A DNA stretch of 64,000 nucleotides from an uncultured Planctomycetales bacterium (lineage in GTDB: Bacteria; Omnitrophota; Gorgyraeia; Zapsychrales; JAHFFX01). The stretch covers positions 128,969 to 192,968 of the forward strand of contig CAZTCI010000003.1 in NCBI GenBank assembly GCA_964612665.1. The letters are read 5' to 3'. The notes under the pieces are model-generated. The model was not told the origin of the DNA. It did not search any database and was given only the letters and a program-made list of their open reading frames with translations. Positions 38,549 to 64,000 of the stretch are shown piece by piece; position 1 is the first letter of the stretch, and each line of letters begins with the position of its first letter. The position numbers and the translations under genes are program-made.

Positions 38549-39073
38549 TTATTCCCTTAAAATCTGTGCAGCCACTTTTAAAATATCATACTGGGTGACA
38601 ATACCTGCCAGATAAAAATTTTTGTCTACAATAGGAATACAGCCATATTTATTATCCACCATAAGCATGATCGCCTTGGCCACGGCATCTTCGGGATGAA
38701 GTGTACAAGGATTTTTTGTCATAACATTTTTTAAAATATGTGTATTCAGACTATTTTGATCATAATACCAGCTTCCGTCATCCAAAATCCGGGGCGCCTG
38801 AATCCGGTATAAGTCCCGCTGAGTTACGAGCCCGGTCAATTTATTGTTCTTGTCTATAATGGGCAGATGCCGGATTGTAAATTGGCGAAATCTGTCTTCA
38901 ACGCAACTAAACGGTTCATCCTCATGAAGGCCTATCACTTTAGTGGTCATAATTTCTTGTAAGGTTACTTTATTCAGGAGAAGCTTAATGTAATAATCTT
39001 CAGGATGGTTCAGCGCCATTAGTATTACCTTTTTTCGAACCGTTAATTTTTTCATAAATCGCCTTAATCTCAA
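38549..39073 (-). CDS. CBS-pair domain protein
   Basis: Two CBS motifs are present. Confidence 0.7.
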   Translation of the reverse strand: MRLRRFMKKLTVRKKVILMALNHPEDYYIKLLLNKVTLQEIMTTKVIGLHEDEPFSCVEDRFRQFTIRHLPIIDKNNKLTGLVTQRDLYRIQAPRILDDGSWYYDQNSLNTHILKNVMTKNPCTLHPEDAVAKAIMLMVDNKYGCIPIVDKNFYLAGIVTQYDILKVAAQILRE

Positions 39074-39992
39074 AAGGCTTTAAAGCCCGGCGATAATACC
39101 GAAAATCATCAATGGCGCCTTTAAAAAAGGAATCCTCACCTTTCCCGGCCATATTTCTCGAGCCAATTCTTCCATTATTAAAATTCGGATAATCTACAAA
39201 CCACGTTGTAAAATTGTCTTTCTCGTCAATACCATTTAAGGGCACTGGTTGTCCATTTAAGTATATCTGGGGTTTAATCCCATCTTGAACTAAAGCGAAA
39301 TGCCACCAAGGATTACTAACAGACTTTCTTTTGGTGATTAAATTCCAGGAGGGATTTAATCGACCTTTGAAACCTGAAATTATCTGCTCCGTACGAGTAT
39401 CTTCATTTATGATAAATTTCAGTGATTCACTATAACTTCCAAATGAAAGTAGCGTTCCATCCCCTCCATCACTTTTAGCCCAAAACATGATTGTGCCAAT
39501 AGCATCATGACTAACAGCTTTCTGAAGGCTATCAATATTAATGCTCTGATTAAAACCATTGAAGCTCAAAGCATTGCCAACGACCCCAGCGACAATTATA
39601 AATTGCGGCCCAATCAAAAAACCATTATGTCCGCCGGTACCTTTATCAAGAATGATATTTCCTTGGATACTGTCAAAAGTGTAATAAACATAGGGCTCAT
39701 TCAAATCCTGAGAAATTTCTTCTTCATTTCTCGAGGGAAACAATCGTTCAGCCTGATTCAGCCTTAACCCTAAGTTTTTTACAACATCATTCTTCGCTTC
39801 TAAGCGGTCAACTTTCCAAGTTATAGACGAAAGGTTTTGGAGCTCCGTTTCCATAGGAACTATTTTAGAACTTGTAGCCTCAATATTTTTAAGACGACTT
39901 TCTAGCTGTTGTAAACGCTGACCTTGGTAATCAACAATAACGCCAAAAATAATAATTATAATTATAGAAATGAAAAAATATTGTGTTTTCAT
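39000..39992 (-). CDS. Membrane-anchored LamG-like (concanavalin A-like lectin) domain protein
   Basis: An N-terminal TM helix and a coiled coil precede the LamG-like segment LSFNGF...IMFWAKSDGG...FRYY. Confidence 0.5.
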   Translation of the reverse strand: MKTQYFFISIIIIIIFGVIVDYQGQRLQQLESRLKNIEATSSKIVPMETELQNLSSITWKVDRLEAKNDVVKNLGLRLNQAERLFPSRNEEEISQDLNEPYVYYTFDSIQGNIILDKGTGGHNGFLIGPQFIIVAGVVGNALSFNGFNQSINIDSLQKAVSHDAIGTIMFWAKSDGGDGTLLSFGSYSESLKFIINEDTRTEQIISGFKGRLNPSWNLITKRKSVSNPWWHFALVQDGIKPQIYLNGQPVPLNGIDEKDNFTTWFVDYPNFNNGRIGSRNMAGKGEDSFFKGAIDDFRYYRRALKPFEIKAIYEKINGSKKGNTNGAEPS

Positions 39993-41404
39993 ACTGATTC
40001 AATTTGATTGTGGTCTTTAGAAAGTTTTTTGTCAATTTCTATACAAGCCACCACAACGGCCATAAGGACCCACATTAAATTCCCCAATTGAACAGAATAA
40101 AAATTGGTATCAACAAAACTATGAACGAGAAACCCAAACAGCCCATATAAACTTCCCGAAGCGGTTAAAAACAAAAAAGGGTCATGAACCTTAGACAAAT
40201 TAAAAAGGGCATATCGAAAAAGAGTCCAGATAATAAAAAGCAACGATATTAATCCAACAAGACCCATTTCAGCTGTCAGCTGCAAATAGCAATTATGCGG
40301 GTATCCGCCCCAAATAATTTTATAATTCTTAGCGACCATAGAATAAGCATTGATGCCAATGCCAAAAACTGGATAGCGTCGAATAATAGATAACGCTTCT
40401 TCCCAATAGGTGGATCTTCCTGAACCGCTAAAATGCAAAAAGAATTCTGAAATTTTTCCCCAAGGAGATGAGACATTTAATAACATCCTCTCAGCTTCTA
40501 GTTCTTCATGTGTTTCCGGTGTTCCTTCACGTAATAAAGATATATTGCGTTCCTCTTTCATTTTCGGAAAAAAAATAAGCCAAAAAATAATAATTGTAAT
40601 TACTGATAAATAAAATTTTCTGGGATGATGAATTCCCCAAAACAACAACGCCAAAAAGAAAGCCAGCCAAGCACCCCGGGAATATGTCCAACCTAAACAG
40701 GCCGCCGTCAATAAGAAAAACACAGCGCAAAAAATCTGCAGCCAGATCAACGAATTTTGATTTTGGGAGGCAACGTGATCTTTTTTTGTCAAAAAAATAA
40801 AATTAAATAATATAAGACAAATGACTACCAAATAACCCCCAAAATCATTCGGATGACGAAAAGATGACATAATCCGTCCAAATTCAATAGCTTTATGCCA
40901 GATAAATTCCCGGCCAGTGATCAATTGAACAATACCATTGATCGTCGCCAACAAAGCCGAAACAAAAAAGACGCCCATAAAAATTTTCAGCGACCTTTTA
41001 TCTTTAAAAGCTTCAACGAATATAAAATACGTAAAGGTCCATTCTAACAATTTAAACATAAACCCTTTAATACTTAGCATTTTGTATTGACTTACAAAAA
41101 TAGAAACGAATCCAGCCAAAATAAATAAAGCCATCGGCCCACTAAGGCAGCTTGAATAAGGTTTTATTGTTATAAGAAACTTCTGGAGACGCTGTTTAAA
41201 CGATTGGAAGTGTTCTGATGAAGATTTACTGAAAAATGCAAAAGTGAGAATCACCCGCTTTATAAGGAAAAAAAAAAGAGCCAAAGAAAAAAAACTCTCT
41301 ACAAGCCCAATTGATATTGGGACGGAATATATCATCGCGCATAATGAGAAAACCATTACCCGCTCGCAACAAGCAATGGAACGCTCAATCGACATAAAGG
41401 ACAA
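39989..41404 (-). CDS. O-antigen ligase/polymerase family (Wzy_C) membrane protein
   Basis: It is a multi-TM protein with a loop motif GWTYSRGAWLAFFLAL. Confidence 0.65.
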   Translation of the reverse strand: MSFMSIERSIACCERVMVFSLCAMIYSVPISIGLVESFFSLALFFFLIKRVILTFAFFSKSSSEHFQSFKQRLQKFLITIKPYSSCLSGPMALFILAGFVSIFVSQYKMLSIKGFMFKLLEWTFTYFIFVEAFKDKRSLKIFMGVFFVSALLATINGIVQLITGREFIWHKAIEFGRIMSSFRHPNDFGGYLVVICLILFNFIFLTKKDHVASQNQNSLIWLQIFCAVFFLLTAACLGWTYSRGAWLAFFLALLFWGIHHPRKFYLSVITIIIFWLIFFPKMKEERNISLLREGTPETHEELEAERMLLNVSSPWGKISEFFLHFSGSGRSTYWEEALSIIRRYPVFGIGINAYSMVAKNYKIIWGGYPHNCYLQLTAEMGLVGLISLLFIIWTLFRYALFNLSKVHDPFLFLTASGSLYGLFGFLVHSFVDTNFYSVQLGNLMWVLMAVVVACIEIDKKLSKDHNQIESV

Positions 41405-41410
41405 ATTAGT

Positions 41411-42697: not shown

Positions 42698-42703
42698 TTC
42701 TGG

Positions 42704-44131: not shown

Positions 44132-44136
44132 AACAA

Positions 44137-44916
44137 TTAATGTGATTGTACCGACTGTGGTTTCGGTTTAAATAGATCGCCCAAGGCCAGATAAATAAAA
44201 ATACTGTTGCCAACCAGATACCTTTTCCACAAACGCCGTGGTTCACAAATCAGACGGAAAAACCATTCGAGCCCGGCTCGCTGCATCCAACGCGGGGCCT
44301 GCTTTTTAACGCCCGATAGAAAATCAAACGCGGCGCCCACGCCTATCATGACCGGCACATCCAATTTATCGCGGTGGTTTTTCATCCAAAAATCTTGTTT
44401 GGGCGAACCTAAACTAACCCACAAAATATCCGGCTGTGATTTATTAATCAATTCTAAAACATCTTCTTTCTCCGGATGAAAATCTTTCGTAAATTCCGGT
44501 GAATAATGGCCGACAATATTGATCTGTGGAAATTCCGTTTTTAATTTAGTTATCAATTTTAAACAAACTTCTGCCGTTGAGCCATAAAAAAAATGTTTAT
44601 AATCTTCGCGCTGGCTGACCAAACAAACTTCTTGCATCAAATCCGGGCCATAAGTCCGGGCGATTGTTTTGTGACCTTTGAGTCTGGCGAGCCAAACAAC
44701 AGGAACTCCATCGGGCGTTACCATTCCTGCTTCATTCACGATCTTATAGTAAGCTGAATCTCTACGGCATTCAACGATCGTTGAAACCGGCGCTACGCAA
44801 ATATACGTTTTATATTTATTTTTGATCCAAGTACCAATGTAGTCCGCTGCAGAAGATAAATTCACCGCGCTGACGCGCACGCCGCAGATGTCGACTGAAG
44901 GAATCGGGTTTGTCAT
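44137..44916 (-). CDS. WecB/TagA/CpsF family glycosyltransferase
   Basis: Family similarity runs over the full 259 aa. Confidence 0.8.
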   Translation of the reverse strand: MTNPIPSVDICGVRVSAVNLSSAADYIGTWIKNKYKTYICVAPVSTIVECRRDSAYYKIVNEAGMVTPDGVPVVWLARLKGHKTIARTYGPDLMQEVCLVSQREDYKHFFYGSTAEVCLKLITKLKTEFPQINIVGHYSPEFTKDFHPEKEDVLELINKSQPDILWVSLGSPKQDFWMKNHRDKLDVPVMIGVGAAFDFLSGVKKQAPRWMQRAGLEWFFRLICEPRRLWKRYLVGNSIFIYLALGDLFKPKPQSVQSH

Positions 44917-46166
44917 GAGGTTAATAATTTCTCATAAATGCCGCAAGCTCGTTTAGCGATATTATCCCAGTCATATGCCTGCACAATCTCCCGCGAAATG
45001 CGTCCTTGAGTTTTTAGTTGATTAAGCTTAAAAAGTTTAATGACCGCGGCACTAATCGTCGCCGGATCATTGTTAGCTAACACAAGGCCATTACGTTCCT
45101 GGTCAACGAGCCAAGGTTGAGCGGTCGTGATAACCGGTAAACCGCAGGCCATGGCTTCAAGCGTGCTGACACTGGAACCGGGATAAGAAAACGCACAAAT
45201 ATAAATATCAGACAAAGCATAATAGCGATACAAATCTTTTTCCGGGACTTCTTGAAAATGCCGGATGTGAGTTTGTAATCCGTTGGCGTCAATTAATTGT
45301 TTCAATTCTCCTTCGAGATAACCTTTGCCTACAATTATTAGTTTGGCTTGAGGGATTTGTTGAAGAATTTCCGGTAAAGCCAGAATAATTTTGTCAACCC
45401 CTTTGTCCGCTGCCAGCCGATTGACGGTAATTAAAACCAAGTCGTTGTCTTTTAAACCAAGCGTCTCGCGTTTTATCTGCGTATTTAAAAAGCTGTCGAC
45501 CGAACCAACGTCTGTCCCGACGGGCAATACATGGCTGCGTTTAAGATCCAGCTCAAAAAGGTTTGAAACTTCCTTAAGATACACCTCTTCTTCAAATAAA
45601 ACCGCCTCTGATTTTTTAAAAATAGTTTCCATCGGTTTGATTTTGAAAAAATATTGAACAGGATATTTTAATATAAGACTGTTGTTCTCACGAGTGGAAA
45701 TTTTTACTTTTTCTTTTTTAATATTCTGCGTTCGACGTCCGATAAGACTTAGAATATTTAAAGGATTAATAATGGAAATCGGATTGGTGAGATAATTGTC
45801 CGTAAAAATTTGCGAAACAACCAGCTTGCGTTTAGACAATTGTAAATATTGGTAACTCACCATATCAAAGCTGTGCAGGATATCAAAATTAATTTTTTGC
45901 AGATAACCGGCGAGCTTTTGGTTAAAAAGGTGAACGCCGAACCAGCCGATAGGATACTCTAAATACCAGTAAATCGCCGGCGGCAAAAAGGTGTATTGAA
46001 TCGATTCGAAATTTTCCAAACGCGGGTTTCCCTTATCTAACGGCGCGACAATTTCAACATCAAGGCCTTTTTTCTTTAAAGCTTTCGCGAAATAATAAAC
46101 ATATTTTTGAACGCCGCCTACAGGGTGAAACGGATAAACGCTTTTGGCCGCTAGAATAATTTTCAT
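44913..46166 (-). CDS. Glycosyltransferase family 4
   Basis: A C-terminal GT-B domain with an EAMACGLPVI-type motif is present. Confidence 0.75.
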   Translation of the reverse strand: MKIILAAKSVYPFHPVGGVQKYVYYFAKALKKKGLDVEIVAPLDKGNPRLENFESIQYTFLPPAIYWYLEYPIGWFGVHLFNQKLAGYLQKINFDILHSFDMVSYQYLQLSKRKLVVSQIFTDNYLTNPISIINPLNILSLIGRRTQNIKKEKVKISTRENNSLILKYPVQYFFKIKPMETIFKKSEAVLFEEEVYLKEVSNLFELDLKRSHVLPVGTDVGSVDSFLNTQIKRETLGLKDNDLVLITVNRLAADKGVDKIILALPEILQQIPQAKLIIVGKGYLEGELKQLIDANGLQTHIRHFQEVPEKDLYRYYALSDIYICAFSYPGSSVSTLEAMACGLPVITTAQPWLVDQERNGLVLANNDPATISAAVIKLFKLNQLKTQGRISREIVQAYDWDNIAKRACGIYEKLLTS

Positions 46167-48525: not shown

Positions 48526-49428
48526 TTAAGCGAACTTTAGCACAGCCCGCATTTTATCCATCACTTTATTTCTTAATCTCATTCGGTTTTTAAAATAATT
48601 AGCCACCGCTTCAAAAACTTCCGGTGTTTCTTTAATGATCTCAGGATATCTAGTCACAGGATGATCCAAAAGGGAAGTTTCAAATCGTTTCGTCCTATAA
48701 GTATTGGTGCCCGTTCCATCAAGACCGATATTTTTGACGAGAGAAAAGGTTGGCACCAGAGTCAAACCATTTCGAAAAAATATACTGGCGGCCCACCGGA
48801 TATCCCAGCCCCCAATCCGCCCCTTCACCTGGTCTTGTAATAGACCATAATAATCATGAGAATTCTTAAAATTATACTCATACTTCATTTTCTCGTCAGT
48901 GAATCTAGCCAATAATTTGGTGCCGCTGGGTTCAAAATATTTCCACGCGCGGGCCCACGTGGCCCATCCCCACCCGACACTGCCGCGCAAAAATCCGGAT
49001 TCGGCGTTCAGGGATTTTATAGGATACATATATCCGCTGATTTCCATAACTTTCTCTTCGTTTGAGTACCGTTCCAAAGCTGCGTTCATATAATTCAAAA
49101 AATGCGAAGACAATACCAGATCATCTTCCAACACGATCACCCGTCCATGCTCAGCACAAAAACGTGTTACAGTATCAATGACTTGCCGCGGACAACCGCG
49201 GTTCTCCACAGAAGCATGTATCTCAACTTTTTGACACCACATTCTGCTTTTAACGACATCTTTGACCGCATTAATTTTTTCTTGGTCAGCCTCAGTCTTA
49301 GGCCCGTCGATAAAGACATGTAATTCACTCGATTTCGCTTCGGCATTTGCGGTTAAAGATTCTAAAACATTACGCACATGATCCGGACGTTTATAAGCAA
49401 ATAAAACAATGGGGGCTAACTTTGTCAT
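48526..49428 (-). CDS. Putative GT-A fold glycosyltransferase
   Basis: The N-terminal motif PIVLFAYKRPDHVRNVLESL and an acidic VLEDDLVL motif are present. Confidence 0.5.
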   Translation of the reverse strand: MTKLAPIVLFAYKRPDHVRNVLESLTANAEAKSSELHVFIDGPKTEADQEKINAVKDVVKSRMWCQKVEIHASVENRGCPRQVIDTVTRFCAEHGRVIVLEDDLVLSSHFLNYMNAALERYSNEEKVMEISGYMYPIKSLNAESGFLRGSVGWGWATWARAWKYFEPSGTKLLARFTDEKMKYEYNFKNSHDYYGLLQDQVKGRIGGWDIRWAASIFFRNGLTLVPTFSLVKNIGLDGTGTNTYRTKRFETSLLDHPVTRYPEIIKETPEVFEAVANYFKNRMRLRNKVMDKMRAVLKFA

Positions 49429-53981: not shown

Positions 53982-54832
53982 TCCGAGGCTGCCAGGTTTT
54001 TGGGATTAGAAGTAACGGTGTTATCGCGAACGTCAAAATAGATTCCTGTTTGGCAAGAAGCTTTGTCGGCATAATTCCATTGATTGTTTTCATATTTAAA
54101 ATAAGCCGTTGTCATCGATTCAGGCGCGAAGGTCTCCTGCAATTTATCAATCATAGATTCATCAAAAATCTGAAACCACCGGTGATTTTTATAGAGCCCA
54201 TACGGCACCGTAATATAAACCGTTCCTCCTTTTTTTAAAATACGTTTAAATTCTGTAATAGCCTTCAGATATTCATATTTTTGATAATTGAAGCGGTCTT
54301 CTTTTCCCGTATAAAATGAATTGTCCATGCCAACGTGTTCCAAACTTGAAATACAAACAACGGCGTCGAAGTAGTCGGATTGAAAACAAGTTGACCGCAG
54401 ATCGCCATATATATAGGAAGGCGACTGGGCGGAAAAGCACATTCCCTCATAGGCGAGCGTCATAATATATAATTGCCGGTCTCGTAAATTGGCCGTGGAT
54501 AAAATTTCGCCGTGGTTGAGACTCGAACCGGCATCGAGAATAATTTTGTCAGAAGCTTTAAGCTGCGCGAAAACCCATGGATATTCAACCGCGCGTTCAT
54601 CCAGCCCTCGGGCGTAACCCTTAGGCAATTGGGATCGACGAAAAGTTTCCAGATTCTTTTGAATAACTTGAAAAATATAATTAAATTTATAAATTGAATA
54701 ACCTAAACTCCATGGCCGCTGACCGCTCATCTGATAATAAAAACATAGTAAATTTCTTAAAGGTTGGCATCGCGAGACGACAGATCTCAGAAACTTTTTA
54801 AAATCAGTCATTTTAGATAATAGATTTATCAA
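53951..54832 (-). CDS. Putative SAM-dependent methyltransferase-like protein
   Basis: It has a Rossmann-like ILDAGSSLNHG motif. Confidence 0.45.
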   Translation of the reverse strand: MINLLSKMTDFKKFLRSVVSRCQPLRNLLCFYYQMSGQRPWSLGYSIYKFNYIFQVIQKNLETFRRSQLPKGYARGLDERAVEYPWVFAQLKASDKIILDAGSSLNHGEILSTANLRDRQLYIMTLAYEGMCFSAQSPSYIYGDLRSTCFQSDYFDAVVCISSLEHVGMDNSFYTGKEDRFNYQKYEYLKAITEFKRILKKGGTVYITVPYGLYKNHRWFQIFDESMIDKLQETFAPESMTTAYFKYENNQWNYADKASCQTGIYFDVRDNTVTSNPKNLAASECIACLKLTK

Positions 54833-56123
54833 AAAGAAGCATAGGGTTAAAGGCCCTCAGCTGTAAAAAAAACATATCGCGTGTTTTTCGGCTAAACAGG
54901 TTTGACAAAGAAGTCGCGAAGAATTGGGAAATGACCGTCGCGATAGCTGCGCCGTTGATTCCCCATTTAGGGATTAAGAAAAGATTTAAAATGATATTAA
55001 AAACGGCGCCAGCCACCGCATAAATCAGCGTATAGATCTGAAGTTTTTCGGTGATCATCCATTTGCTCCGGGCAACGCCCAAGAACACAAAAATCCCGGC
55101 CCACACATGAATCACCAAAACCTGCGCCGCCGGCAAATAAGCCTGCCCAAATAAAATCTTAATTAACGGGCCCGCCAAAAACATTAAACTCAATGAAAAC
55201 CCAATTGCCAGCCACACGAGAACGGAAAATAAAACTTCCAAACGGTTTAAATACAAAACCTCATCTCTTTTCTTGGCGTTCACAATCGCCGGGAACAAAG
55301 ACGCGGTAACCAACATGGGGATAAAATAAAAGCCCTCACTAATTTTGACCGCAGCAGAGTAATATCCGACGGCAGCAACGCCCAGCATATTCTTGATCAT
55401 GATCTGATCAATCCGCATATAAATAGAAATCGCAACGCCTGACAGCGCGAGCGGCCACGATTCTCTAAACAACTGAGCAAGTCTATCCCAGTTAAAAAGC
55501 AATTTGATGGGAGCTACTTTTTTAAGCTCATAAAGAAAAATGAGACCAATACAAATCAACACCGCTTCCAGCAATAAGACTTCGGCGAACGCTATAAGCG
55601 GGGCCTTGATATAAATGAGAAAAATATAAATTAACGATGTAACGAACAATGAAAACAGTTGCGCATAAGTAACATACTTTGAAGCCACCTTAGACTGAAA
55701 ATAGAAATCAATAACATCCGCCGTCTGAAAAAACATCCGCAACGACATAATCCAAACCATAACCGCCGTATAAAAGGGGATAGAAAAAATCCAAATACAT
55801 AAGCTGATAAGAATGAACGCCAAAAAACTTCCAATCAACTTTAAAAAAAAAGCCTCCGTTAAAATCTGGTTTTTTGCCCCGGCATGATGAACCAGATCCC
55901 TGACCACAACCGCTTCCAGTCCCAAATCTGAAAAAAGATTAAACAGAAAAACAAAGCTTAAAGCATAACTGTACAACCCGAAACGCTCCGGCCCGAGATA
56001 GCGAACGACCATCGCCCAAACAGTCACAACCATTACCGCGCGGATAATTTTTTCTAAAAAAAGAAATCCCGTATTGCTCGCGTATTTTTGAAATCCGGAA
56101 GACTGTAAAAGCGTCTTGATCAT
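54813..56123 (-). CDS. Wzx-type oligosaccharide flippase (polysaccharide biosynthesis / MOP family)
   Basis: The protein is 436 aa with about 12 TM helices. Confidence 0.7.
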   Translation of the reverse strand: MIKTLLQSSGFQKYASNTGFLFLEKIIRAVMVVTVWAMVVRYLGPERFGLYSYALSFVFLFNLFSDLGLEAVVVRDLVHHAGAKNQILTEAFFLKLIGSFLAFILISLCIWIFSIPFYTAVMVWIMSLRMFFQTADVIDFYFQSKVASKYVTYAQLFSLFVTSLIYIFLIYIKAPLIAFAEVLLLEAVLICIGLIFLYELKKVAPIKLLFNWDRLAQLFRESWPLALSGVAISIYMRIDQIMIKNMLGVAAVGYYSAAVKISEGFYFIPMLVTASLFPAIVNAKKRDEVLYLNRLEVLFSVLVWLAIGFSLSLMFLAGPLIKILFGQAYLPAAQVLVIHVWAGIFVFLGVARSKWMITEKLQIYTLIYAVAGAVFNIILNLFLIPKWGINGAAIATVISQFFATSLSNLFSRKTRDMFFLQLRAFNPMLLFDKSII

Positions 56124-57304
56124 CGTTTGGCGTAACGTTCTTTAGCTTGTTCGTAAATTTTCATCAAATATTCATAATTACGGCCGGGGGTGTAGTGGCT
56201 TTCATATTCTCGACGGGCTTCTTGGCCCATGAATGCCATTCTTTTTTTATCATTCAGGAATTTTTGAAGCTGCTTTGCTAAATCCGCTGCATTGCCTGTC
56301 TCAAACAGAAGCCCAGTTCTCCCTTCAGCAATATATTCTTTAATTCCATCGAGCCGACTCGCGATCACTGGCACACCATAAGAGAACGCTTCAACAATCG
56401 TGCGCGGAAAATTGTCGTGGCAGATCGACGGCACAACAACACACGCGGCAGATTTCAAATGACGAATATAATCTTCATCGGAACAATAGCCCAGGACTTG
56501 AACGCGTTTTAAATTTTCTTGAGCAACGGATTCTTTTATTTCCGTAAGGAGCGGACCTTCACCGATGATTTTCAAAGGGACATCCGGCAGTGAAGTCCAG
56601 GCCCTTAAAAGCACGCGCACACCTTTTTCTGCAGAAATGCGGCCGATGTAAAGTGCGTAACCTTGGTCATTTTCACGGCGGCCGTTTTGGTTTTCATAAA
56701 AATGCGGTTTGACGGTGACCTTTTCCGCTGGAATTCCCGCTTCGCCATGTTTGCGCCGGCTGAATTCCGTCGCCGTAATGTAACCGTCGATCAATTGGTT
56801 CCAAGTTCCTTTCTGCCAGTGCTTGTTTAACATCCGAACAACGAGCGCTGTAAAAAGTTTTGAACCTTTATAACAACCATACTTCACCCCGCGCCAGCGC
56901 GAATGATGCAGACATTCTTCACAATGCCGTCCCTCTCTTAAAAACAACGCATTAGCGCACATCAAACGGTAATTATAAAGACTCTGCACAACCGGGACCT
57001 TTGCGTCACGGCAGGCATAATAAACCGCGGGTGTCACCATAAAGAACGTATTGTAAACATGACAAATATCCGCGGCAAAACCTTTAAGAATGCCTTGAAT
57101 CTCATTGTAAGTCTTTTTGGACCAATCCATTTGAAGGATATGTCTTTGCTTTTCAAGAAAATTGTACTGATTAATTTCAGCGTTGCTACGTTCATATAAA
57201 TAAACCTCATGACCATGCCGTCGGAGTAATTCGCTTTCCGCCTGAAAAACAGCATCTTCGCCGCCGAATTGCTGATAGCGGTTGTGGACCATTAGGATTT
57301 TCAT
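56120..57304 (-). CDS. Glycosyltransferase family 4
   Basis: A GT-B C-terminal domain with EAFSYGVPVI-type motif is present. Confidence 0.8.
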   Translation of the reverse strand: MKILMVHNRYQQFGGEDAVFQAESELLRRHGHEVYLYERSNAEINQYNFLEKQRHILQMDWSKKTYNEIQGILKGFAADICHVYNTFFMVTPAVYYACRDAKVPVVQSLYNYRLMCANALFLREGRHCEECLHHSRWRGVKYGCYKGSKLFTALVVRMLNKHWQKGTWNQLIDGYITATEFSRRKHGEAGIPAEKVTVKPHFYENQNGRRENDQGYALYIGRISAEKGVRVLLRAWTSLPDVPLKIIGEGPLLTEIKESVAQENLKRVQVLGYCSDEDYIRHLKSAACVVVPSICHDNFPRTIVEAFSYGVPVIASRLDGIKEYIAEGRTGLLFETGNAADLAKQLQKFLNDKKRMAFMGQEARREYESHYTPGRNYEYLMKIYEQAKERYAKR

Positions 57305-57418: not shown

Positions 57419-58135
57419 CTACTCTTTAAAGAATTGAGTCTTATTCTTCTCAAAAACATCCTGTGCCGCTTGGAGATCAACCATACGGCCCAAATCAAAC
57501 CACATATCGTTCATCTCAAAGCAGTAAACGGACTGGTTGTTTTGTTTTATACGAAGCATCAATTCAGGCATGCCCAAAATTTCTTTGGAGCGGACAAATT
57601 CCGTGCATTGTTTATTGAGAACATTGATTCCTAAACTTAAAAAAGATTCCGCCTTCGGTTTCTCAACGTAATCCGTCATGAGCAAATTTTTATTAAAAGT
57701 GATGACGCCAAAATCGTTTTGCGTCACGCATTTCTTAACGGCAATCGTCGCCAGGCCTTTTCTTTTTTTGTGGAAGTCGAACAGACTGCGGAAATTTAAA
57801 TCGGTCAACGTATCACCGTTGATGACCAGAAAATTATCTTTCAGTTTTGGAATCGCTTTAAGCGCGCCGGCGGTCCCCAGCGGTTCGTCTTCACGCACGT
57901 AACGGATGGAAACGCCCCAGCGTTTTCCGTCGGCAAAATAAGCTTCAATCAATTCCGCCAGATGCCCGGTTGAAATCACAATATCGGTGATACCATAAAA
58001 TTTAAGCTGGCGGATGATAATTTCAGCGATGGGAAATTCACCGATTGGAATGAGCGGTTTGGGTAAAATCGTTGTGTATGGCCGCAAGCGCGATCCTTTT
58101 CCGCCGGCGAGAATGACCGCCTGCCAATTAGACAT
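57419..58135 (-). CDS. Sugar-1-phosphate nucleotidyltransferase
   Basis: The motif AVILAGGKGSRLRPYTTILPKPL is present. Confidence 0.85.
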   Translation of the reverse strand: MSNWQAVILAGGKGSRLRPYTTILPKPLIPIGEFPIAEIIIRQLKFYGITDIVISTGHLAELIEAYFADGKRWGVSIRYVREDEPLGTAGALKAIPKLKDNFLVINGDTLTDLNFRSLFDFHKKRKGLATIAVKKCVTQNDFGVITFNKNLLMTDYVEKPKAESFLSLGINVLNKQCTEFVRSKEILGMPELMLRIKQNNQSVYCFEMNDMWFDLGRMVDLQAAQDVFEKNKTQFFKE

Positions 58136-59120
58136 TGTAGATCTCCGCTTTATAGTGTTTTAATTTTTCCTGAATCCACGCGCAGGTTTTTTGAAGGCCG
58201 TCTTCCAAAGAAACATCGGGTTTCCAGCGGCAGACTTTTGTTAGTGCGGTGCTGTCGCAGACCAAACGCTCCACTTCACTTTTTCCGGGCCGGAAACGTT
58301 TTTCATCCGTCGTGATTTCAACCGGTTTATCCAAGATTTTTCCGATCAGCGCGGCTAATTCGCGGATGGAAATTTCTCGGTTGCTGCCGCTGTTAAACGT
58401 GAAACCGATCGTTTTGTCATGGAGGGCCACAGTTAAGAAAGCATCGACGGTGTTTGTGACATAATTAAAATCGCGGGTAGTTTCGACATTGCCTAATTTA
58501 ATTTTCTTCTGCCCGGAAAAAATTTGGGTGATGATCGTCGGAATAACTGCGCGGGCGGATTGGCGCGGACCAAAGGTGTTGAAAGGACGAAGTACGGTGA
58601 CAGGAAGATTAAAGGAACGGTAAAAAGAAATCGCAAGCTGGTCGGCGGCGGCTTTGGTTGCCGCGTAAGGTGATTGAGGTTCAATCGGATGTTTCTCATC
58701 CATCGGCACGTATTGAGCTGTGCCAAAAACTTCGCTGGTTGAGGTATGAATAATCCGTCCAACATTCAGCCGGCGCGCCGCTTGCAAAATATTAAGCGTC
58801 CCTTTGACATTGGTGTCGACGTAACTATCCGGAGAATGAAAACTAAATGGAATCCCAATAAGCGCGGCCAAATGAAAAACAATATCTATTCCTTCCATCG
58901 CCTTGGCAACGCCGTGCGGATCGCGGACGTCGCCGGTAAAAACATCCAGTTTACTCAAGAGCTTCGGCGGCAGCGTCTCAAGCCAGCCCCAGCTATTAAA
59001 GGAATTGTAATAAACAAATGCTCTGACTTCGGCGCCTTCTTTAGCTAAACGTTCAGTTAAATGACTTCCAATGAATCCATCAGCACCTGTTACAAGAATC
59101 TTACGTTTTTTCCAAGACAT
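58128..59120 (-). CDS. NAD-dependent sugar epimerase/dehydratase (extended SDR)
   Basis: The nucleotide-binding glycine motif is GADGFIGSH. The catalytic YxxxK appears as YAATKAA. Confidence 0.85.
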   Translation of the reverse strand: MSWKKRKILVTGADGFIGSHLTERLAKEGAEVRAFVYYNSFNSWGWLETLPPKLLSKLDVFTGDVRDPHGVAKAMEGIDIVFHLAALIGIPFSFHSPDSYVDTNVKGTLNILQAARRLNVGRIIHTSTSEVFGTAQYVPMDEKHPIEPQSPYAATKAAADQLAISFYRSFNLPVTVLRPFNTFGPRQSARAVIPTIITQIFSGQKKIKLGNVETTRDFNYVTNTVDAFLTVALHDKTIGFTFNSGSNREISIRELAALIGKILDKPVEITTDEKRFRPGKSEVERLVCDSTALTKVCRWKPDVSLEDGLQKTCAWIQEKLKHYKAEIYNV

Positions 59121-59187
59121 AATTTTTTTCTCAGCCTTTTTCTGTAGACCACTGCTTTTTAAAAAAAATTCCGGAGCATTATAGAGC

Positions 59188-61389
59188 TCACACTTTCTGA
59201 GCGATAGTCGAGGATAAAAGATAATGACAATACGCCAGCGTCATGCCAAATAAGCTCCAGAACAAAATCGCATGATACGGCACTTCTAAAATCACACTCA
59301 CGTTAGCCATGGCCATCCAATAAATCAAAGCGCCCGTCAACAAAATACCCGGCACTGATTTTAAACGTATAAAATTCTTAATCATATAAACGAGAACAAC
59401 CAACACGGTAATAATAAAAGCTATACTTATTAAACCAGCCCGATAAATCATATCAAAAAAAGCATTATGCATCTCAATCCAGCCATCGCGCCTCCATTCG
59501 CCTTCAGCCCACGAAAGAATTTCCAGCCGTTTTGAGCGAAACGGCTTTCCAAAATTAAAACCGACAAACGGCTTCTCTTTAATCAGGTCATCCCAAATAT
59601 CCTGCCAAATAAAAACGCGAAAAAGACTATTGCCGATGGCCGCTTCTTCGCTTCTTTTTCGAACAAGAATAGTTCCAATCACCCACCCAGCCGTTTCGTC
59701 ATCTCTAAGGTAAAGTACTTTCCTTAGTTTTATAGGAAGCAGACCTTTTTCTTCCGTGTTTTTTAGATTAAAACGATTTTCAAGCTCTTCCGTTATTTGA
59801 TTTCTCGCCTCATCAGAACCACTGACGAGTCTGGATTCCAAATTCTTGTCGAGATTATAACGTTTAATAAGATCTTTGATTATTCTTAGCTTTATCTGCA
59901 ATGCTTTAATATCATCGCTGGATAAGCCGCTGGGAGGATTTTGAATATTATCTGTTAAATAAAGATCCGGTCTTAGCGTCGGAATCTTTCCAGCCAGGGT
60001 AGTTAGCTTTTCCATTAATTCGGGCGAAATGGTTGAAATATCTATATTAATTGTTTTCAGAAATGCTGGTTGATTATTTATGGATTGATTTGGAACAGCT
60101 CTGGGCGGAAGAATTTCATGCATTGTTGTTTGGGTTTTAACTTTCTCTAACGTATGGTTGGACGTCGCGGTCTTAACGGGCGTCGTCTGATTTTTTTGGT
60201 CTTTTGCATGGGAGGGATTGACGGGGCTAGCAACATAAGCCGTTGTCTTGTGATTTGTTGCTTCAAGAGCAATCTTTGTCTCATTAGATCGCTCTTTGAT
60301 ATGAATTGGATTGACAGGGGTCTTTACATCAGTCGTTGTTTGATGATTCACTGCTCCGAGCGCAATCTTTGTCTCATCGGATTTAGTTATTTCTTTTCTT
60401 TTTTGCGTTGTATCGACAGCATTAACGGACTCGGTTTCTGGTTTCGATAAAGTTGTCTTTTGTTGTTGGGAATAGACATTTGTTAAAAACTGATTTTGGG
60501 CATCCTTTACGGCCTGGGTCTTTTCTTTATTGTAAAGTTTGACTTCCTTTAATGGCTTAAAATGAAATGTGGGCAAATCAGCTTGGATTTTTTGATTATT
60601 AACGTCATATTCGGCTTTTGTTTTATCGATTTTAAACAAAGAATTAAGATTACTTTTATTCTCAAGAAAAAATAAACTCACCACAAAAGCCCCAAGCAAA
60701 GACAATCCAATCACAATTTTAAGTCTGGGGTCGCATTTTAAAATAATCGAAAAAGCAATAAAAAGATATAGACTCGTAAGCATGATAGCAACCAGTTCTG
60801 TTCTTGATACCAATACAAAATGTTTATACGGAAGGACGACCAAAAGGATTAATGCCGCGATCAGCTTAAATCTCTTCTCAGGATGCGTCAGAATAAGAAC
60901 ACCCGTCAAAAAGAACCCCAGCAGAAAATCCGGCCGCAGAAAGGCGTCCAGTTTAAATGTGATCATCATCAAAAGCACGAGTCCCGCTTTTTTCCAAGAG
61001 GTAAAAAAGCGGTGATTAAAAAAAGCATAGCCTAAGACGGCAAATAAAGAATAATAAAACAACGCCGCGTGCCGAAAGGCCAATGGTCCAAAAAGATGAC
61101 AGCCCCATAAAGCCTTTAGCCCAATAAACGCTATCCAAGTTAAAATACTAATCTGAAAAACTGGAGCGATCTTTCTTAAATTTTCTTGGCGATTTAGAAA
61201 AAACAGAATTAGACAGATGCCCAGCAGAATCTCTCCAATAAAAATTGGGAATCCAAACCCTGGAATGACAATACTTTTCTCGGCAAAATAACGGCTCCAA
61301 ACAAAATAACAATAAGACGCCAAGCCTATCAAGATCAATCCCAGGTCGTTGGTTGTTAAAGAAAAACGCTTGAAGTATTCACTCATCAT
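59188..61389 (-). CDS. Large Wzy/WaaL-like polytopic membrane protein with a repeat-containing periplasmic loop
   Basis: The 733-aa protein has TM bundles at both ends. A hydrophilic central region contains two tandem copies of about 31 aa, ETKIAL(G/E)A(V/T)NH(Q/K)TT...PVNP. Confidence 0.5.
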   Translation of the reverse strand: MMSEYFKRFSLTTNDLGLILIGLASYCYFVWSRYFAEKSIVIPGFGFPIFIGEILLGICLILFFLNRQENLRKIAPVFQISILTWIAFIGLKALWGCHLFGPLAFRHAALFYYSLFAVLGYAFFNHRFFTSWKKAGLVLLMMITFKLDAFLRPDFLLGFFLTGVLILTHPEKRFKLIAALILLVVLPYKHFVLVSRTELVAIMLTSLYLFIAFSIILKCDPRLKIVIGLSLLGAFVVSLFFLENKSNLNSLFKIDKTKAEYDVNNQKIQADLPTFHFKPLKEVKLYNKEKTQAVKDAQNQFLTNVYSQQQKTTLSKPETESVNAVDTTQKRKEITKSDETKIALGAVNHQTTTDVKTPVNPIHIKERSNETKIALEATNHKTTAYVASPVNPSHAKDQKNQTTPVKTATSNHTLEKVKTQTTMHEILPPRAVPNQSINNQPAFLKTINIDISTISPELMEKLTTLAGKIPTLRPDLYLTDNIQNPPSGLSSDDIKALQIKLRIIKDLIKRYNLDKNLESRLVSGSDEARNQITEELENRFNLKNTEEKGLLPIKLRKVLYLRDDETAGWVIGTILVRKRSEEAAIGNSLFRVFIWQDIWDDLIKEKPFVGFNFGKPFRSKRLEILSWAEGEWRRDGWIEMHNAFFDMIYRAGLISIAFIITVLVVLVYMIKNFIRLKSVPGILLTGALIYWMAMANVSVILEVPYHAILFWSLFGMTLAYCHYLLSSTIAQKV
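60190..60400. repeat. In-frame tandem repeat of about 93 bp, two copies, inside the Wzy-like gene
   Basis: Direct DNA repeats (ttgacrggg...caatctttgtctcat...) encode the duplicated 31-aa peptide. Confidence 0.6.
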
Positions 61390-61417
61390 AGTTAATTAAA
61401 ACTGTGCGATTGATTTT

Positions 61418-62503
61418 TTATCCCAGGGACAAAGCGCCCAATGAATTTTGAAATTTGGGATTATTGAAAAAATAAACTTTCAGAATCTTTCTATAAAACT
61501 TGGAATCAAAAACTAAGCCGGGATACTTCAAAAAGATTTTCAAGGCAGAAATCATGCTGAAGCACTTGGTCGTCTTAAAAAGCACCGGCACATAAAAAAG
61601 TTTCATCCGCTCTATCGTCCGTCGGACAATCGGTGATGAATAATCGCTGCCCATGTAGGCTTTAATGTATTCATCAAAGAGCCGGAAGACTTGTTTACAA
61701 TCGGCCGCGGATTGTTGAGGCTGATATTCCAACATGCGTAAAATAATTTTGGTCTCTTGAGATTGAACTGCTGGTAAATACGTTTGGATTTTTTTAAGAC
61801 TGACTTCTTGTCTGGCATCTATCTGTCTTCGGTTATCAAGACGGGAATCAGAACGTTCTAGTATACGATACTGTAATAAAACTCTTCCAATATTAGCAAA
61901 TTGATGTTTCGGTAAAATCCTGGACCATAATTCGTAATCCTGAGGAAAACCGCTGCCTTGACCGTTCATCTCATCGTAAAGCCCAACCTCTTTAAAAACT
62001 GACCGCCGTATCAAAACACTCGGGTGAGTGATACACCAAAAAGAAAGATCACCGCACGCGGCCATGAAACATTTGATTTCCAAAGGATCAACCGGCACTT
62101 TAAAAACGCTTAGCGGCTGCCCAGACTCATTCATGTCCAAACGCCATGTCCCGACGACCGCGGCCGTGGGATGCGCGTCCAAAAAATCACGCTGTAGTTC
62201 CAAACGCTCCGGCAAAGACACATCATCAGCGTCCATACGCGCGATATAAGTCCCGCGGCTGGCCCGAATCCCGATGTTTAATGATTTCGTTTGGCCAAAA
62301 TTTTTTTCGTTCTTCAGTGAAACAATACGGTCGTCCAGAAATGAGGCAATGATATCTTCTGTTGCGTCACTGCTGGCATCATTAACAATGATGAATTCAA
62401 AATCAGTAAAAGTTTGATTCAAAATGCTTTCAATCGCTTCTCTAAGATATTTTTCCCCGTTAAAAACGGTCATGACAACGCTTATTTTGGGATTATTTAT
62501 CAT
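61418..62503 (-). CDS. Glycosyltransferase family 2
   Basis: The GT-A N-terminal motif ISVVMTVFNGEKYL is present, with a DxD-type motif RMDADD. Confidence 0.85.
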   Translation of the reverse strand: MINNPKISVVMTVFNGEKYLREAIESILNQTFTDFEFIIVNDASSDATEDIIASFLDDRIVSLKNEKNFGQTKSLNIGIRASRGTYIARMDADDVSLPERLELQRDFLDAHPTAAVVGTWRLDMNESGQPLSVFKVPVDPLEIKCFMAACGDLSFWCITHPSVLIRRSVFKEVGLYDEMNGQGSGFPQDYELWSRILPKHQFANIGRVLLQYRILERSDSRLDNRRQIDARQEVSLKKIQTYLPAVQSQETKIILRMLEYQPQQSAADCKQVFRLFDEYIKAYMGSDYSSPIVRRTIERMKLFYVPVLFKTTKCFSMISALKIFLKYPGLVFDSKFYRKILKVYFFNNPKFQNSLGALSLG

Positions 62504-62537
62504 GCGCTTCGGAGAGTTTAGAATCTAAAACGATTCT

Positions 62538-63323
62538 TTACTTTAAGTCTTTGATCAAGAATGCCTGGCCCGAAGGAAGAGGGATTAAAAATCCGCCGCC
62601 GATTTCCGCAAGATGTTGATCGACAGCCTTTTTCGCGCCGGGGAATTGCATACAACCGTAATCATCGAAAACCATAACGCCGTGCTTCACAAGCCGCGGA
62701 TAAAAAAACTTGATCGAATCATAAATCGGTTGATAAAGATCAACATCAACATGAACAAAAGAAAATTTTTTATTCTGAACGTCAGGAAATTTAGTTGGAA
62801 TCCACCCTTTATGATATTGGATAAAGTTAAACTCACATAAATTTTGACTGACAATTTCAAGTGGACAAGCGTATTCCTTGCGCAAAGTTTCATTATTTTG
62901 ACGACGATCATGAGGCACATCAACAGGCAAAAGTTCTGACAATCCTTCGAAGGAATCAAAAATATGAAAAATGATTTTTCTGTTCAGCGTTTTGATATGA
63001 GTGGCAATTTGGTAAGCGGATAAACCCCGGCGGCAACCGAGCTCGCAGACCTCTCCATCATTTAAATTCGTGTTCCATAAAAGATAATTGAGCGTGTAAT
63101 GACGCTGGCGGCGGATCGGATGGTCAGTGTCCCGCATCTGCGTTTTATTCTGTGCAAACTCATACAGATCATGAAATTTTTCATCGATTTCAAAATAAGT
63201 TTGTGCAATCTGTTCTTGCCCCGGCCAACAAGGCCATCGGGTATCGCGGTTATTATATTTTCTTATTCGGGTTAACTGATAACCGGTTGTGCTGATGGCC
63301 TGCTGAATCAACTGCTTTAACAT
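62538..63323 (-). CDS. TylF/MycF-family (macrocin-type) sugar O-methyltransferase
   Basis: The C-terminal block VMVFDDYGCMQFPGAKKAVD is typical of the TylF family. Confidence 0.8.
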   Translation of the reverse strand: MLKQLIQQAISTTGYQLTRIRKYNNRDTRWPCWPGQEQIAQTYFEIDEKFHDLYEFAQNKTQMRDTDHPIRRQRHYTLNYLLWNTNLNDGEVCELGCRRGLSAYQIATHIKTLNRKIIFHIFDSFEGLSELLPVDVPHDRRQNNETLRKEYACPLEIVSQNLCEFNFIQYHKGWIPTKFPDVQNKKFSFVHVDVDLYQPIYDSIKFFYPRLVKHGVMVFDDYGCMQFPGAKKAVDQHLAEIGGGFLIPLPSGQAFLIKDLK

Positions 63324-63331
63324 GCTTCCCC

Positions 63332-64000
63332 CTAGGTTAATGAAAGCGTTATGGTTTCTCTATTATCTGCAAGTTTGTTAACAGCTTGATAGAAATTATC
63401 GTAGTATTGTTTAGGATCCGGATAAATCGACAAATAATCGGACATGACTTTCCGGTATTCAAGAACATCAACGGATCTTTTGCCAGCCATGATTTCATTG
63501 ACGACAGACAACAACTTCTCGGCACTGTTTACATAAATCGGAATCCGGCTGATTCCAGAGAGAGGACACAAGTCCACAATCTCATAAAGGTTCGGCACAA
63601 TAACTGGGATTTCATGATGAACCGCCCAAAACACCGACGAGGATTCTTTAACCATCATCACGCTTGATTCCGGCACAATCTCCTGCAGATCGCGGGTGGT
63701 CAGTTCAAAATTCTTCTCATTGAATTTCAAACCGATTCTGTCAATTGTCTTTTGAAGCGGATCGCACGGATGGCCTTTAAGCAAAATTTTATAATTCAAC
63801 GTCTGATTGTTAAACGCATCATGAAGCAAACGTAACATTTCAATATTCTCAAAAGGCGACAGTGAAAAGGCGACAACAATATGGCGTTTTTTACTGCGCG
63901 TTTCGGTTTCCGCTCCCTCTTTTCTTAAAAGAGCCTGATAACGGAATCCGCCGAGGATGAAAACATCGCTTTCTTTCCAGCCGTTGTTAAGAAAAAGTCT
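63332..64000 (-). CDS. Polysaccharide biosynthesis protein, partial; possibly capsule/teichoic-type transferase-like
   Basis: The reading frame stays open upstream of the annotated Met through the window end (...KRHIVVAFSLSPFENIEMLRLL...). There is no confident family assignment. Confidence 0.35.
   Translation of the reverse strand, partial: RLFLNNGWKESDVFILGGFRYQALLRKEGAETETRSKKRHIVVAFSLSPFENIEMLRLLHDAFNNQTLNYKILLKGHPCDPLQKTIDRIGLKFNEKNFELTTRDLQEIVPESSVMMVKESSSVFWAVHHEIPVIVPNLYEIVDLCPLSGISRIPIYVNSAEKLLSVVNEIMAGKRSVDVLEYRKVMSDYLSIYPDPKQYYDNFYQAVNKLADNRETITLSLT

Follow-up and report, generated by a model that had tools for sequence, protein, structure and literature searches.

A recurrent gene block with a predicted UDP-sulfoquinovose synthase in a surface-glycan locus of a bacterium assigned to the Omnitrophota

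The window considered here, meaning the whole stretch of 64,000 nucleotides that was analyzed (positions 128,969 to 192,968 of contig CAZTCI010000003.1, GenBank assembly GCA_964612665.1), holds the downstream 25 kb of a surface-glycan locus that is at least 35 kb long. All open reading frames (ORFs) of at least 130 aa between 39000 and 64000, the cut-off and range of our census, lie on the minus strand, and 23 of them make up the part of the locus that falls within the window, 22 being complete and one cut by the window end. An earlier note on this DNA had rightly described a co-directional cluster but had counted 26 or more genes; the intergenic spacing runs from -31 to +115 bp, with seven gene pairs overlapping, and further genes therefore do not fit. 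The extent of 25 kb given there is accurate for the genes at 39000-64000 but falls short of the whole, which continues for at least 10 kb upstream. Tight packing on one strand makes the run operon-like, and it resembles one or a few operons. Hidden Markov model (HMM) scans covered 41 window proteins, namely the 23 of the locus and 18 others, the ~19 ORFs not covered being mostly short and external to the locus; they supported the flippase (Wzx), two of the three Wzy_C and most of the glycosyltransferase (GT) assignments of the note. Loci of this kind are well known, and the notable part of this one is a canonical SqdB in a recurrent glycan block with a GT13-like transferase.

The sqdB gene very probably encodes a UDP-sulfoquinovose synthase, in line with the earlier proposal. 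Its product aligns end to end with SQD1 of Arabidopsis (1QRR; query residues 4-387 against chain residues 3-383, E 2.7e-98) and conserves the catalytic residues T147-M148-G149, Y190-H191 and K194 in ORF numbering, which lie in the motifs GTMG and SIYHMTK. A review of nucleotide-sugar dehydratases lists the fingerprint [ST]MG...Y-x3-K for SQD1/Agl3 (PMC8987622); the window protein matches it and has the Tyr-His pair of SQD1 as well. It is also ~68-72% identical to thousands of proteins, including those of Thermosynechococcaceae, Moorena, Paracoccus and Hyphobacterium, and many of the relatives at ~70% identity carry the JGI name UDP-sulfoquinovose synthase. The full-length SQD1 match, the fingerprint and the identity to JGI-named synthases make the assignment well supported; the score against NF041015, the NCBIfam model for this enzyme, speaks against it, reaching 353.5 bits under an equivalog cut-off of 575, with residues 1-380 of 384 aligned. 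A 388-aa form starting at TTG is not on record, and the ATG two codons further in gives the 386-aa form that is.

Full-length homology, the fingerprint and the Tyr-His pair are thus common to SQD1 of plants, SqdB of bacteria, Agl3 of Sulfolobus acidocaldarius and the window enzyme. In sequence the last matches the bacterial SqdB-type proteins, whereas its context is a bacterial Wzx locus and neither the lipid genes sqdX/sqdDC nor archaeal AglB-dependent N-glycosylation. The product of Agl3 appears as beta-linked sulfoquinovose in the N-glycan of Sulfolobus (PMC8993221), and the proposed use of the window SqdB for a glycan, not a lipid, would parallel this. The archaeal N-glycan is the glycan precedent found in the literature, sulfoquinovose being otherwise described in sulfolipids; the literature searched contained no account of a bacterial polysaccharide with sulfoquinovose, nor of an O-antigen cluster with sqdB.

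Directly downstream of sqdB lies the gene for a GT-A protein that gave only sub-threshold Pfam GT-A matches and nothing in a phmmer search of the Protein Data Bank (PDB). With its predicted model, Foldseek returned GT13 enzymes at E 4e-13 to 1e-10, among them POMGnT1 (E 4e-13) and GnT-I (E 6e-11), and then the GT16 enzyme GnT-II. The family comprises 2062 matches of ~300 aa in which the motif E101-D102-D103 is invariant, and the model makes the protein a candidate inverting GT-A transferase of the UDP-sugar type. Its gene adjoins sqdB also on three other metagenomic contigs, L084, L093 and the P0151 contig, and it belongs to a block that recurs on such contigs: SqdB, the GT13-like protein, the radical S-adenosylmethionine (SAM) enzyme, a cupin, a DegT aminotransferase, a methyltransferase, a GT4 and a GT26. 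On L093 these are, in the same order, 77, 52, 65, 39, 62, 44, 55 and 58% identical to their window counterparts, with the cupin in the same position. The P0151 contig keeps the block order but is without the radical SAM gene (SqdB, GT13-like, a 144-aa protein, DegT, methyltransferase, GT4) and goes on with a GT2, a Wzy_C protein and more GT4s. On L084, SqdB (74%), the GT13-like gene (48%) and a GT4 lie 3' of Wzx and DegT, and an ISL3 transposase gene has been inserted into the locus. Conversely, none of the 40 other scorable SqdB loci in a metagenome scan (54-72% identity) has the block; L097, alone among them, has a distant GT-A match, 29% identical, on the opposite strand and ~4 kb away. As a side observation, the region directly 3' of the SqdB, GT13-like and GT4 genes on L084 (L084:13501-20739) contains four copies of a 139-aa retropepsin-like gene (Asp_protease_2/gag-asp_proteas), interleaved with the toxin-antitoxin genes ParE, HicA, SocA_Panacea, HepT/MNT and PIN.

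Table 1. Predicted genes of the glycan locus within the window, in order of position (TM, transmembrane segments)
Position	Strand	Predicted product	Basis
39000..39992	-	Laminin_G_3 (concanavalin-like lectin/glucanase) protein, 330 aa, last gene of the run	PF13385 46.4 bits, E 5.9e-12
39989..41404	-	Wzy_C/O-antigen-ligase paralog A, 471 aa, ~10-12 TM	PF04932 81.5 bits
41411..42697	-	Wzy_C/O-antigen-ligase paralog B, 428 aa	PF04932 88 bits
42704..44131	-	Initiating polyprenyl-phosphate hexose-1-phosphate transferase (large WbaP/WcaJ type)	Bac_transf 231 bits, CoA_binding_3 74 bits
44137..44916	-	WecG/TagA/CpsF (GT26)	PF03808 216.6 bits; TIGR00696 180 bits, cut-off 69
44913..46166	-	GT4 (a)	Glycos_transf_1 105.7 bits; Glyco_transf_4 39 bits
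46163..46921	-	Class I SAM methyltransferase, directly downstream of the aminotransferase gene	Methyltransf_25 65 bits
46922..48094	-	Pyridoxal phosphate-dependent sugar aminotransferase, Per/LegC (GDP-sugar C4) type	DegT_DnrJ_EryC1 427.7 bits
48114..48512	-	Small cupin, WbuC-like	TIGR04366 33 bits, under cut-off 42
48526..49428	-	GT-A glycosyltransferase, GT13-like fold, 300 aa	AF2 pLDDT 94.8; Foldseek
49444..50604	-	UDP-sulfoquinovose synthase (SqdB/SQD1/Agl3 type), 386 aa	ATG at 50604; SQD1 homology
50720..51769	-	Radical SAM protein with SPASM/twitch-like domain	Radical_SAM 35.7 bits, SPASM 31.6 bits
51868..53079	-	SGNH/GDSL-like protein, 403 aa, one N-terminal TM	Lipase_GDSL_2 26.7 bits, under cut-off 32.9
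53151..53981	-	Class I SAM methyltransferase	Methyltransf_11 77.8 bits
53951..54832	-	Divergent methyltransferase, 293 aa, probable (weak)	Methyltransf_11 27.1 bits, partial; no NCBIfam match
54813..56123	-	Wzx-type MOP-family flippase	Polysacc_synt and Polysacc_synt_3 83.4 bits each; ~11 hydrophobic segments
56120..57304	-	GT4 (b)	Glycos_transf_1 122.7 bits
57419..58135	-	Sugar-1-phosphate nucleotidylyltransferase	NTP_transferase 136 bits; 8-bp overlap with upstream dehydratase gene
58128..59120	-	LegB-type NAD-dependent nucleoside diphosphate (NDP)-sugar 4,6-dehydratase	TIGR04180 484.2 bits, cut-off 475
59188..61389	-	Third WaaL/Wzy_C-like protein, 733 aa	Via family members and predicted fold
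61418..62503	-	GT2	Glycos_transf_2 117.8 bits
62538..63323	-	TylF-type (macrocin O-methyltransferase family) sugar O-methyltransferase	PF05711 60.5 bits
63332..64000	-	666-aa TIGR04326-like 'surface carbohydrate biosynthesis protein', C-terminal 168 codons	TIGR04326 181.5 bits, under cut-off 250

The assembly core is largely as the earlier note had described it. The initiating transferase exceeds the TIGR03025 cut-off (417 against 295.6 bits), the flippase exceeds that of Polysacc_synt (28.2 bits) and also matches Wzx_EPS (E 6e-13), and the predicted five or more GTs are accounted for by the GT26, the two GT4s and the GT2 from HMM matches and by the GT13-like protein from its model fold. The GT2 gene lies directly upstream of a homolog of the 733-aa protein also on L091, where the GT2 homolog is 43% identical. 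The description of a complete Wzx/Wzy pathway holds for the WbaP-type transferase, Wzx and the GTs but not for the rest: neither Wzz/PCP, Wza (OPX), Wzb nor Wzc (PCP-2a kinase) was found in the 41 scanned window proteins, although a Wzz may be encoded beyond the window, and no polymerase can be distinguished. With Wzx/Wzy-type O-antigen and exopolysaccharide (EPS) clusters such as Salmonella rfb, the locus shares the WbaP-type transferase, the MOP-family Wzx, several GTs, in-cluster nucleotide-sugar genes, proteins of the Wzy_C/WaaL fold and a slightly lower GC content of the membrane-protein genes. Unlike them, it has three WaaL-fold genes that each bear the ligase-type motif but lacks a recognizable separate Wzy; it shows no Wzz within 64 kb, measures at least 35 kb and includes SqdB, a radical SAM/SPASM enzyme and four methyltransferases, and its host is an uncultured member of the Omnitrophota.

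Three Wzy/WaaL-like proteins had been predicted, and all three were recovered, two by PF04932 and the third through its family members and predicted fold. Paralogs A and B both lie above the PF04932 cut-off of 31.7 bits and are 29.5% identical to each other over 454 aa (E 5e-54); phmmer against the PDB returned nothing for either. Paralog B has further weak matches to TIGR03097, RfaL and TIGR04370, the last a polymerase model (19.7 bits, cut-off 40). The motif H-[NSQ]-x9-G-x2-[GAS] occurs in exactly one copy, in the position expected, in each of the three proteins, as HNCYLQLTAEMGLVG at residue 370 of paralog A, HNCYIQLAAEVGFLG at residue 335 of paralog B and HNAFFDMIYRAGLIS at residue 641 of the 733-aa protein, and in none of 19 other locus proteins. 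Each copy has the form H-N-x9-G-x2-[GS], a type originally defined on O-antigen ligases. Because all three proteins carry this ligase-type motif, polymerase and ligase are not separable among them.

The 733-aa protein consists of an N-terminal TM block (residues 1-290), a disordered linker of ~290 residues rich in Thr, Lys and Asn, and a C-terminal block of catalytic type (residues 585-733). It has no Pfam or NCBIfam match of its own, its BLASTP comparison with paralogs A and B was not significant, and hhalign of its family profile against the single paralog sequences gave only 11-21% probability, with the H-N motif correctly aligned. Its database relatives, by contrast, are 460-620 aa long with E down to 1e-88; several carry precomputed PF04932 annotations and two bear the name 'O-antigen ligase family protein [Candidatus Omnitrophica]'. 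When 20 family members were scanned singly, 15 matched Wzy_C (best E 2.7e-10), and an alignment of the 20 shows R591, D597, H641 and N642 (numbering of the 733-aa protein) to be invariant, with a linker that ranges from near zero to ~290 residues and is longest in the window protein. AlphaFold predicts both blocks with confidence and residues 298-472 as disordered. The linker contains two tandem 31-residue repeats (residues 339-400, window 60190-60375 on the minus strand), identical at 19 of 31 positions and of the pattern ETKIAL..NH.TT....VNP.H.K. A profile search of 1.84 billion representatives found 509 relatives of 458-994 aa at E<=1e-30, and the protein thus belongs to a populous, unnamed subfamily of the WaaL fold with a hypervariable linker. 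It differs from WaaL of Cupriavidus metallidurans (PDB 7TPG/7TPJ), to which it is only 13% identical, in the repeat-bearing linker between the TM and catalytic blocks and in falling into this distinct subfamily of 509 representative clusters.

Among the enzymes that would supply and modify the sugars, the nucleotidylyltransferase, the LegB-type dehydratase and the aminotransferase would provide a standard route to an NDP-4-amino-4,6-dideoxyhexose, probably GDP-linked. The best NCBIfam matches of the nucleotidylyltransferase are guanylyl- and uridylyl-transferases, all sub-cut-off. The aminotransferase reaches 366.8 bits with the LegC family, under the cut-off of 420, and its nearest solved structure is GDP-perosamine synthase (3BN1, 343 bits); its real start is probably ~20 codons inside the ORF, public gene calls having 370 aa. 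A complete legionaminic-acid pathway was considered and rejected, as neither the window nor the 10 kb upstream yielded a NeuB-type synthase, a hydrolysing 2-epimerase or an acetyltransferase; of that set, LegB scores above its cut-off (484 against 475) and LegC below (367 against 420), and upstream only CMP-transferases are represented. Adjacent genes for a nucleotidyltransferase and a LegB-type dehydratase, plus an aminotransferase of Per/LegC type, are common to this branch and the PtmE/LegB/LegC and Gmd/Per systems of comparison. Unlike the legionaminic pathway of Campylobacter, the window is without LegH, LegG and LegI/NeuB homologs and has an aminotransferase under the LegC cut-off, and the likely product would be the 4-amino-4,6-dideoxyhexose, used as such.

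The earlier note had paired the DegT aminotransferase with a cupin, of which the former is clear and the latter stays sub-threshold. A role of the cupin as a 3,4-ketoisomerase was rejected, BLASTP showing no similarity to one FdtA (Chitinophaga, L090). The radical SAM/SPASM enzyme was predicted correctly, both domains being matched; its CX3CX2C motif spans residues 45-52, and five more cysteines lie in the C-terminal part. Its nearest solved protein is the sugar-alcohol dehydrogenase BtrN (4M7S), a weak match (E 1.2e-4) over the N-terminal 110 residues. The radical SAM protein of L084 is not an ortholog, with just 27% identity over 150 residues, and therefore only L093 documents the conservation of the window gene. 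In the synthesis of butirosin, BtrN is paired with an aminotransferase of the DegT family, and by analogy it is conceivable that the radical SAM enzyme and DegT form an oxidation-transamination pair acting on a sugar of the block. As with BtrN/BtrS, a radical SAM enzyme with an auxiliary-cluster domain accompanies a DegT-family aminotransferase, here within one conserved block, but the similarity to BtrN is weak and a nucleotide sugar, in place of an aminocyclitol, would be the substrate.

Four methyltransferases had been proposed, and three are clear (Methyltransf_25, Methyltransf_11 and TylF), the fourth being weak. The one beside DegT, which keeps this position on L093 and the P0151 contig, would be a candidate for methylating the amino sugar at N or O. 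The esterase or acyltransferase-like SGNH assignment is likewise weak: in addition to the Pfam match listed in Table 1, the protein matches the Leptospira SGNH models LA_2486/LA_2490 at E 1e-7, phmmer against the PDB gave nothing, and a glycan O-acyl esterase or transferase is possible from the sequence. The start of the Laminin_G_3 gene shares 4 bp with the stop of the Wzy_C gene upstream of it, and the Laminin_G_3 product, with an N-terminal hydrophobic segment, is predicted to be membrane-anchored or secreted.

At the other end, the frame of the 666-aa gene is open to base 64000, and the full gene is found on L001/L083. L083 is a 28-kb Logan contig of identical sequence that runs at least 10 kb past the window end and carries more glycan genes. 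These are, on the same strand and in order, the 666-aa TIGR04326-like gene, a short-chain dehydrogenase/reductase, a D-2-hydroxyacid dehydrogenase, an FkbM methyltransferase, a KdsB-like cytidylyltransferase (277 bits, over the cut-off of 255), an HpaI-type pyruvate aldolase, a HAD phosphatase, a PseF-like cytidylyltransferase and an LIC12162-like protein. The module at L083:1-6035, formed by the genes from the short-chain dehydrogenase/reductase to the PseF-like cytidylyltransferase, resembles a route to a CMP-activated acid of the 3-deoxy-ulosonic type, with a class II pyruvate aldolase replacing the KdsA/NeuB-type synthase. Families defined in Leptospira are the only model matches for the proteins at 51868-53079 (LA_2486/LA_2490), 63332-64000 (TIGR04326, LIC13510) and L083:1-77 (LIC12162), which hints at a shared, little-studied set of glycan-tailoring proteins.

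Downstream, the same-strand run continues to window position ~20.1 kb, through housekeeping genes: those for a CBS-pair protein and DUF1844, aroQ, an M24 peptidase gene (pepP), efp, accB, accC, pfk, thiE and aroB, and, further on, uvrB, groEL, guaA, dnaE and hisS. Because the adjoining genes are of this kind, the downstream border of the glycan locus is sharp, at ~39.0 kb. In its longest form, with a TTG start, the CBS-pair gene (38549-39073) would have 74 bp in common with the 3' part of the Laminin_G_3 gene; its start is probably further in than this TTG, and the border thus near 39.0 kb. Consensus scans for promoters (44 against 48.9 expected) and terminators (29 against 22.1 +/- 5.5 expected) were both at background. 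The UvrB of the window is 69-74% identical to that of many metagenome-assembled genomes labelled Candidatus Omnitrophota or, where the submission was automated, 'uncultured Planctomycetales', and at most 60% identical to UvrB from other phyla, and no species representative in the genome collection searched exceeded ~74%. By this marker the stretch is assigned to the chromosome of an uncultured Candidatus Omnitrophota bacterium, of the diderm Planctomycetes-Verrucomicrobia-Chlamydiae (PVC) group.

Taken together, the locus probably builds the repeat unit of a heavily tailored heteropolysaccharide on a polyprenyl-phosphate carrier and exports it via Wzx. SqdB would convert UDP-glucose and sulfite to UDP-sulfoquinovose, and the nucleotidyltransferase, the LegB-type 4,6-dehydratase and the Per/LegC-type aminotransferase would yield the NDP-4-amino-4,6-dideoxyhexose, probably GDP-linked, which the adjacent methyltransferase may modify. 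The SAM methyltransferases, one of them TylF-type, the radical SAM/SPASM enzyme and the weakly matched SGNH protein may add further decoration. The WbaP-type transferase would begin the repeat unit on the lipid carrier, and the GT26, the two GT4s, the GT2 and the GT13-like GT-A enzyme would lengthen it, the last being the best candidate for adding beta-linked sulfoquinovose. Wzx would then move the unit across the membrane, where the three WaaL-fold/Wzy_C proteins on the outer face may polymerize it, ligate it to an acceptor, or both; the acceptor would most probably be the lipopolysaccharide (LPS) core-lipid A, and possibly also proteins or a second polymer. Donor and acceptor specificities, the division of roles among the Wzy_C proteins and the final acceptor are our inferences from this arrangement, and three of the family assignments, for the cupin, the SGNH protein and the methyltransferase-like protein of 293 aa, stay sub-threshold. 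On this basis the methylated, aminated and sulfonated heteropolysaccharide foreseen in the earlier note is a reasonable prediction, and its description of a surface-glycan locus with an unusually rich tailoring set stands, in a Wzx-dependent, lipid-carrier-based form.

Given three WaaL-fold proteins and a diderm host, an O-antigen-type polymer linked to LPS is the most economical reading. Several points weigh against it: no chain-length regulator is seen in the window, no polymerase can be singled out among the three ligase-type proteins, no LPS core or lipid A genes are present in the window, and the locus may encode more than one glycan. PF04932 also covers the O-oligosaccharyltransferases PglL/PilO and EPS polymerases such as ExoQ. 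A capsule or EPS, whose export genes would then be located elsewhere, or a glycan for protein O-glycosylation with one or more Wzy_C proteins acting as a PglL/PilO-type oligosaccharyltransferase, would accord with three ligase-like genes, more than one O-antigen requires, with the EPS-type TIGR03025 as best model of the initiating transferase and with the name of the TIGR03097 family that paralog B weakly matches, 'putative O-glycosylation ligase'. We nevertheless regard it as rather unlikely, since Wza, Wzb, Wzc and Wzz are missing from the scanned proteins, no PglL-specific domain was matched, and O-antigen ligase and LPS genes have been reported from the genomes of the diderm Omnitrophota (preprint). 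To a composite locus serving two or more glycans we likewise give limited credence. The first glycan would be made by the initiating phosphoglycosyltransferase (PGT), the GT26, a GT4, SqdB, the amino-sugar block and Wzy_C paralogs A and B, and the second by the GT2, the 733-aa ligase-like protein, the TIGR04326-like protein and the upstream CMP-sugar-acid module. Such a division would explain the three Wzy_C-type genes and the two CMP-transferases of the upstream module, and it agrees with the recurrence of the SqdB-to-GT26 block as a unit on L093, where the upstream part is not visible, and of the GT2 and 733-aa-type pair separately on L091 (Omnitrophota), in a different gene set. Yet the 35 kb available show only one PGT and one Wzx, the genes form a single, closely packed co-directional run, and L091 ends with a GT26 and a PGT, so that the pair is not independent of a PGT there.

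The fate of sulfoquinovose and the origin of the locus call for similar weighing. A GT13-like neighbor, the presence of the closest SqdB relatives (74-77%) in the same multi-gene block, with Wzx, Wzy_C, DegT and GT26 nearby, and the lack of this block at the 40 other loci lead us to infer that sulfoquinovose goes into a glycan rather than a sulfolipid, with the GT13-like enzyme as the best candidate sulfoquinovosyltransferase. Should SqdB merely sit in the locus and serve the membrane sulfolipid sulfoquinovosyl diacylglycerol (SQDG), a GT4 would take the part of SqdX, with diacylglycerol as its acceptor. SqdX belongs to GT4, the locus has two GT4 genes, one of which weakly matches a monoglucosyl-diacylglycerol synthase model (65 bits, cut-off 400), and the SqdB is ~70% identical to proteins of cyanobacteria and alphaproteobacteria, lineages known to make SQDG. 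This is improbable all the same, given the company of the closest SqdB relatives and the lack of the block at 54-72% identity. In addition, the GT4-like genes by canonical sqdB loci are just 25-29% identical to GT4 (b), and no GT8 (SqdD-like) match occurs among the scanned locus proteins. No sqdX adjoins sqdB on the one cyanobacterial contig examined. Against the glycan proposal itself, a Chitinophaga member of the GT13-like family has methyltransferases, FdtA and DegT as neighbors but no SqdB, and the family is therefore not tied to sulfoquinovose; with 2062 matches it is large, and the donor of the window enzyme could be the amino sugar instead. That Omnitrophota and their neighbors put sulfoquinovose into a Wzx-exported glycan via a conserved module, with the GT13-like enzyme as the sulfoquinovosyltransferase, is accordingly a tentative proposal. 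To our knowledge no GT13-like sulfoquinovosyltransferase has been assigned as an enzyme class, no search having been aimed at it. Bolder still, and deserving very little weight, is the idea that the BtrN-like radical SAM enzyme and DegT oxidize and transaminate the sulfo-sugar to an amino-sulfo-hexose.

The earlier note had called the locus an island, and its recent acquisition is improbable. Mean gene GC is slightly lower in the locus than in 37 flanking genes (0.412 against 0.430, p = 0.02), a shift driven by the Laminin_G and two Wzy_C genes (GC 0.36-0.38), but GC at third codon positions does not differ (0.428 against 0.423, p = 0.71). The tetranucleotide correlation of locus segments to the core (0.91-0.95) falls within the range of the core's own segments (0.90-0.97). 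Because both measures match the core, recent horizontal acquisition is not supported, and the composition of 39-64 kb, which the note had proposed as a check, is native-like. Neither an integrase nor a transposase was found at the visible (downstream) border, which abuts housekeeping genes, and the sole tRNA is 10 kb off, at 29392. Furthermore, the source-named closest homologs of the 733-aa protein and the SqdB block are labelled Candidatus Omnitrophica. What would favor an island, besides the GC difference, is that surface-polysaccharide cassettes of Omnitrophota have been described as hypervariable and partly mobile (preprint), together with two observations on other contigs. An ISL3-family transposase lies just upstream of SqdB in the related glycan locus (L084:8438-9670, L086:1632-2864), consistent with rearrangement of such cassettes by mobile elements. 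Short-read contigs of four runs (SRR12313477-80) carry identical proteins but end at several points within the locus, the ends (L001, L087, L088) lying at window ~39.4, 45-46, 51.8-53 and 57.4 kb; strain-level cassette variation or uneven coverage may lie behind these breaks. There are thus mild hints of a recombining, strain-variable cassette, which would be compatible with the native-like composition.

Such surface-glycan loci occur commonly and are hypervariable, and this one is in itself unsurprising. It does give an initial view of the surface chemistry of Omnitrophota cells, which are small, often live in association with hosts and are likely to depend centrally on their surface for attachment and phage escape, and it documents a populous, unnamed subfamily of the WaaL fold with a hypervariable, disordered periplasmic linker. 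The eight-gene block and its candidate transferase provide a concrete genomic lead to sulfoquinovose as a possible building block of bacterial surface polysaccharides. If this is true, sulfoquinovose glycans would be an added source of the environmental sulfoquinovose pool that feeds sulfoglycolysis.

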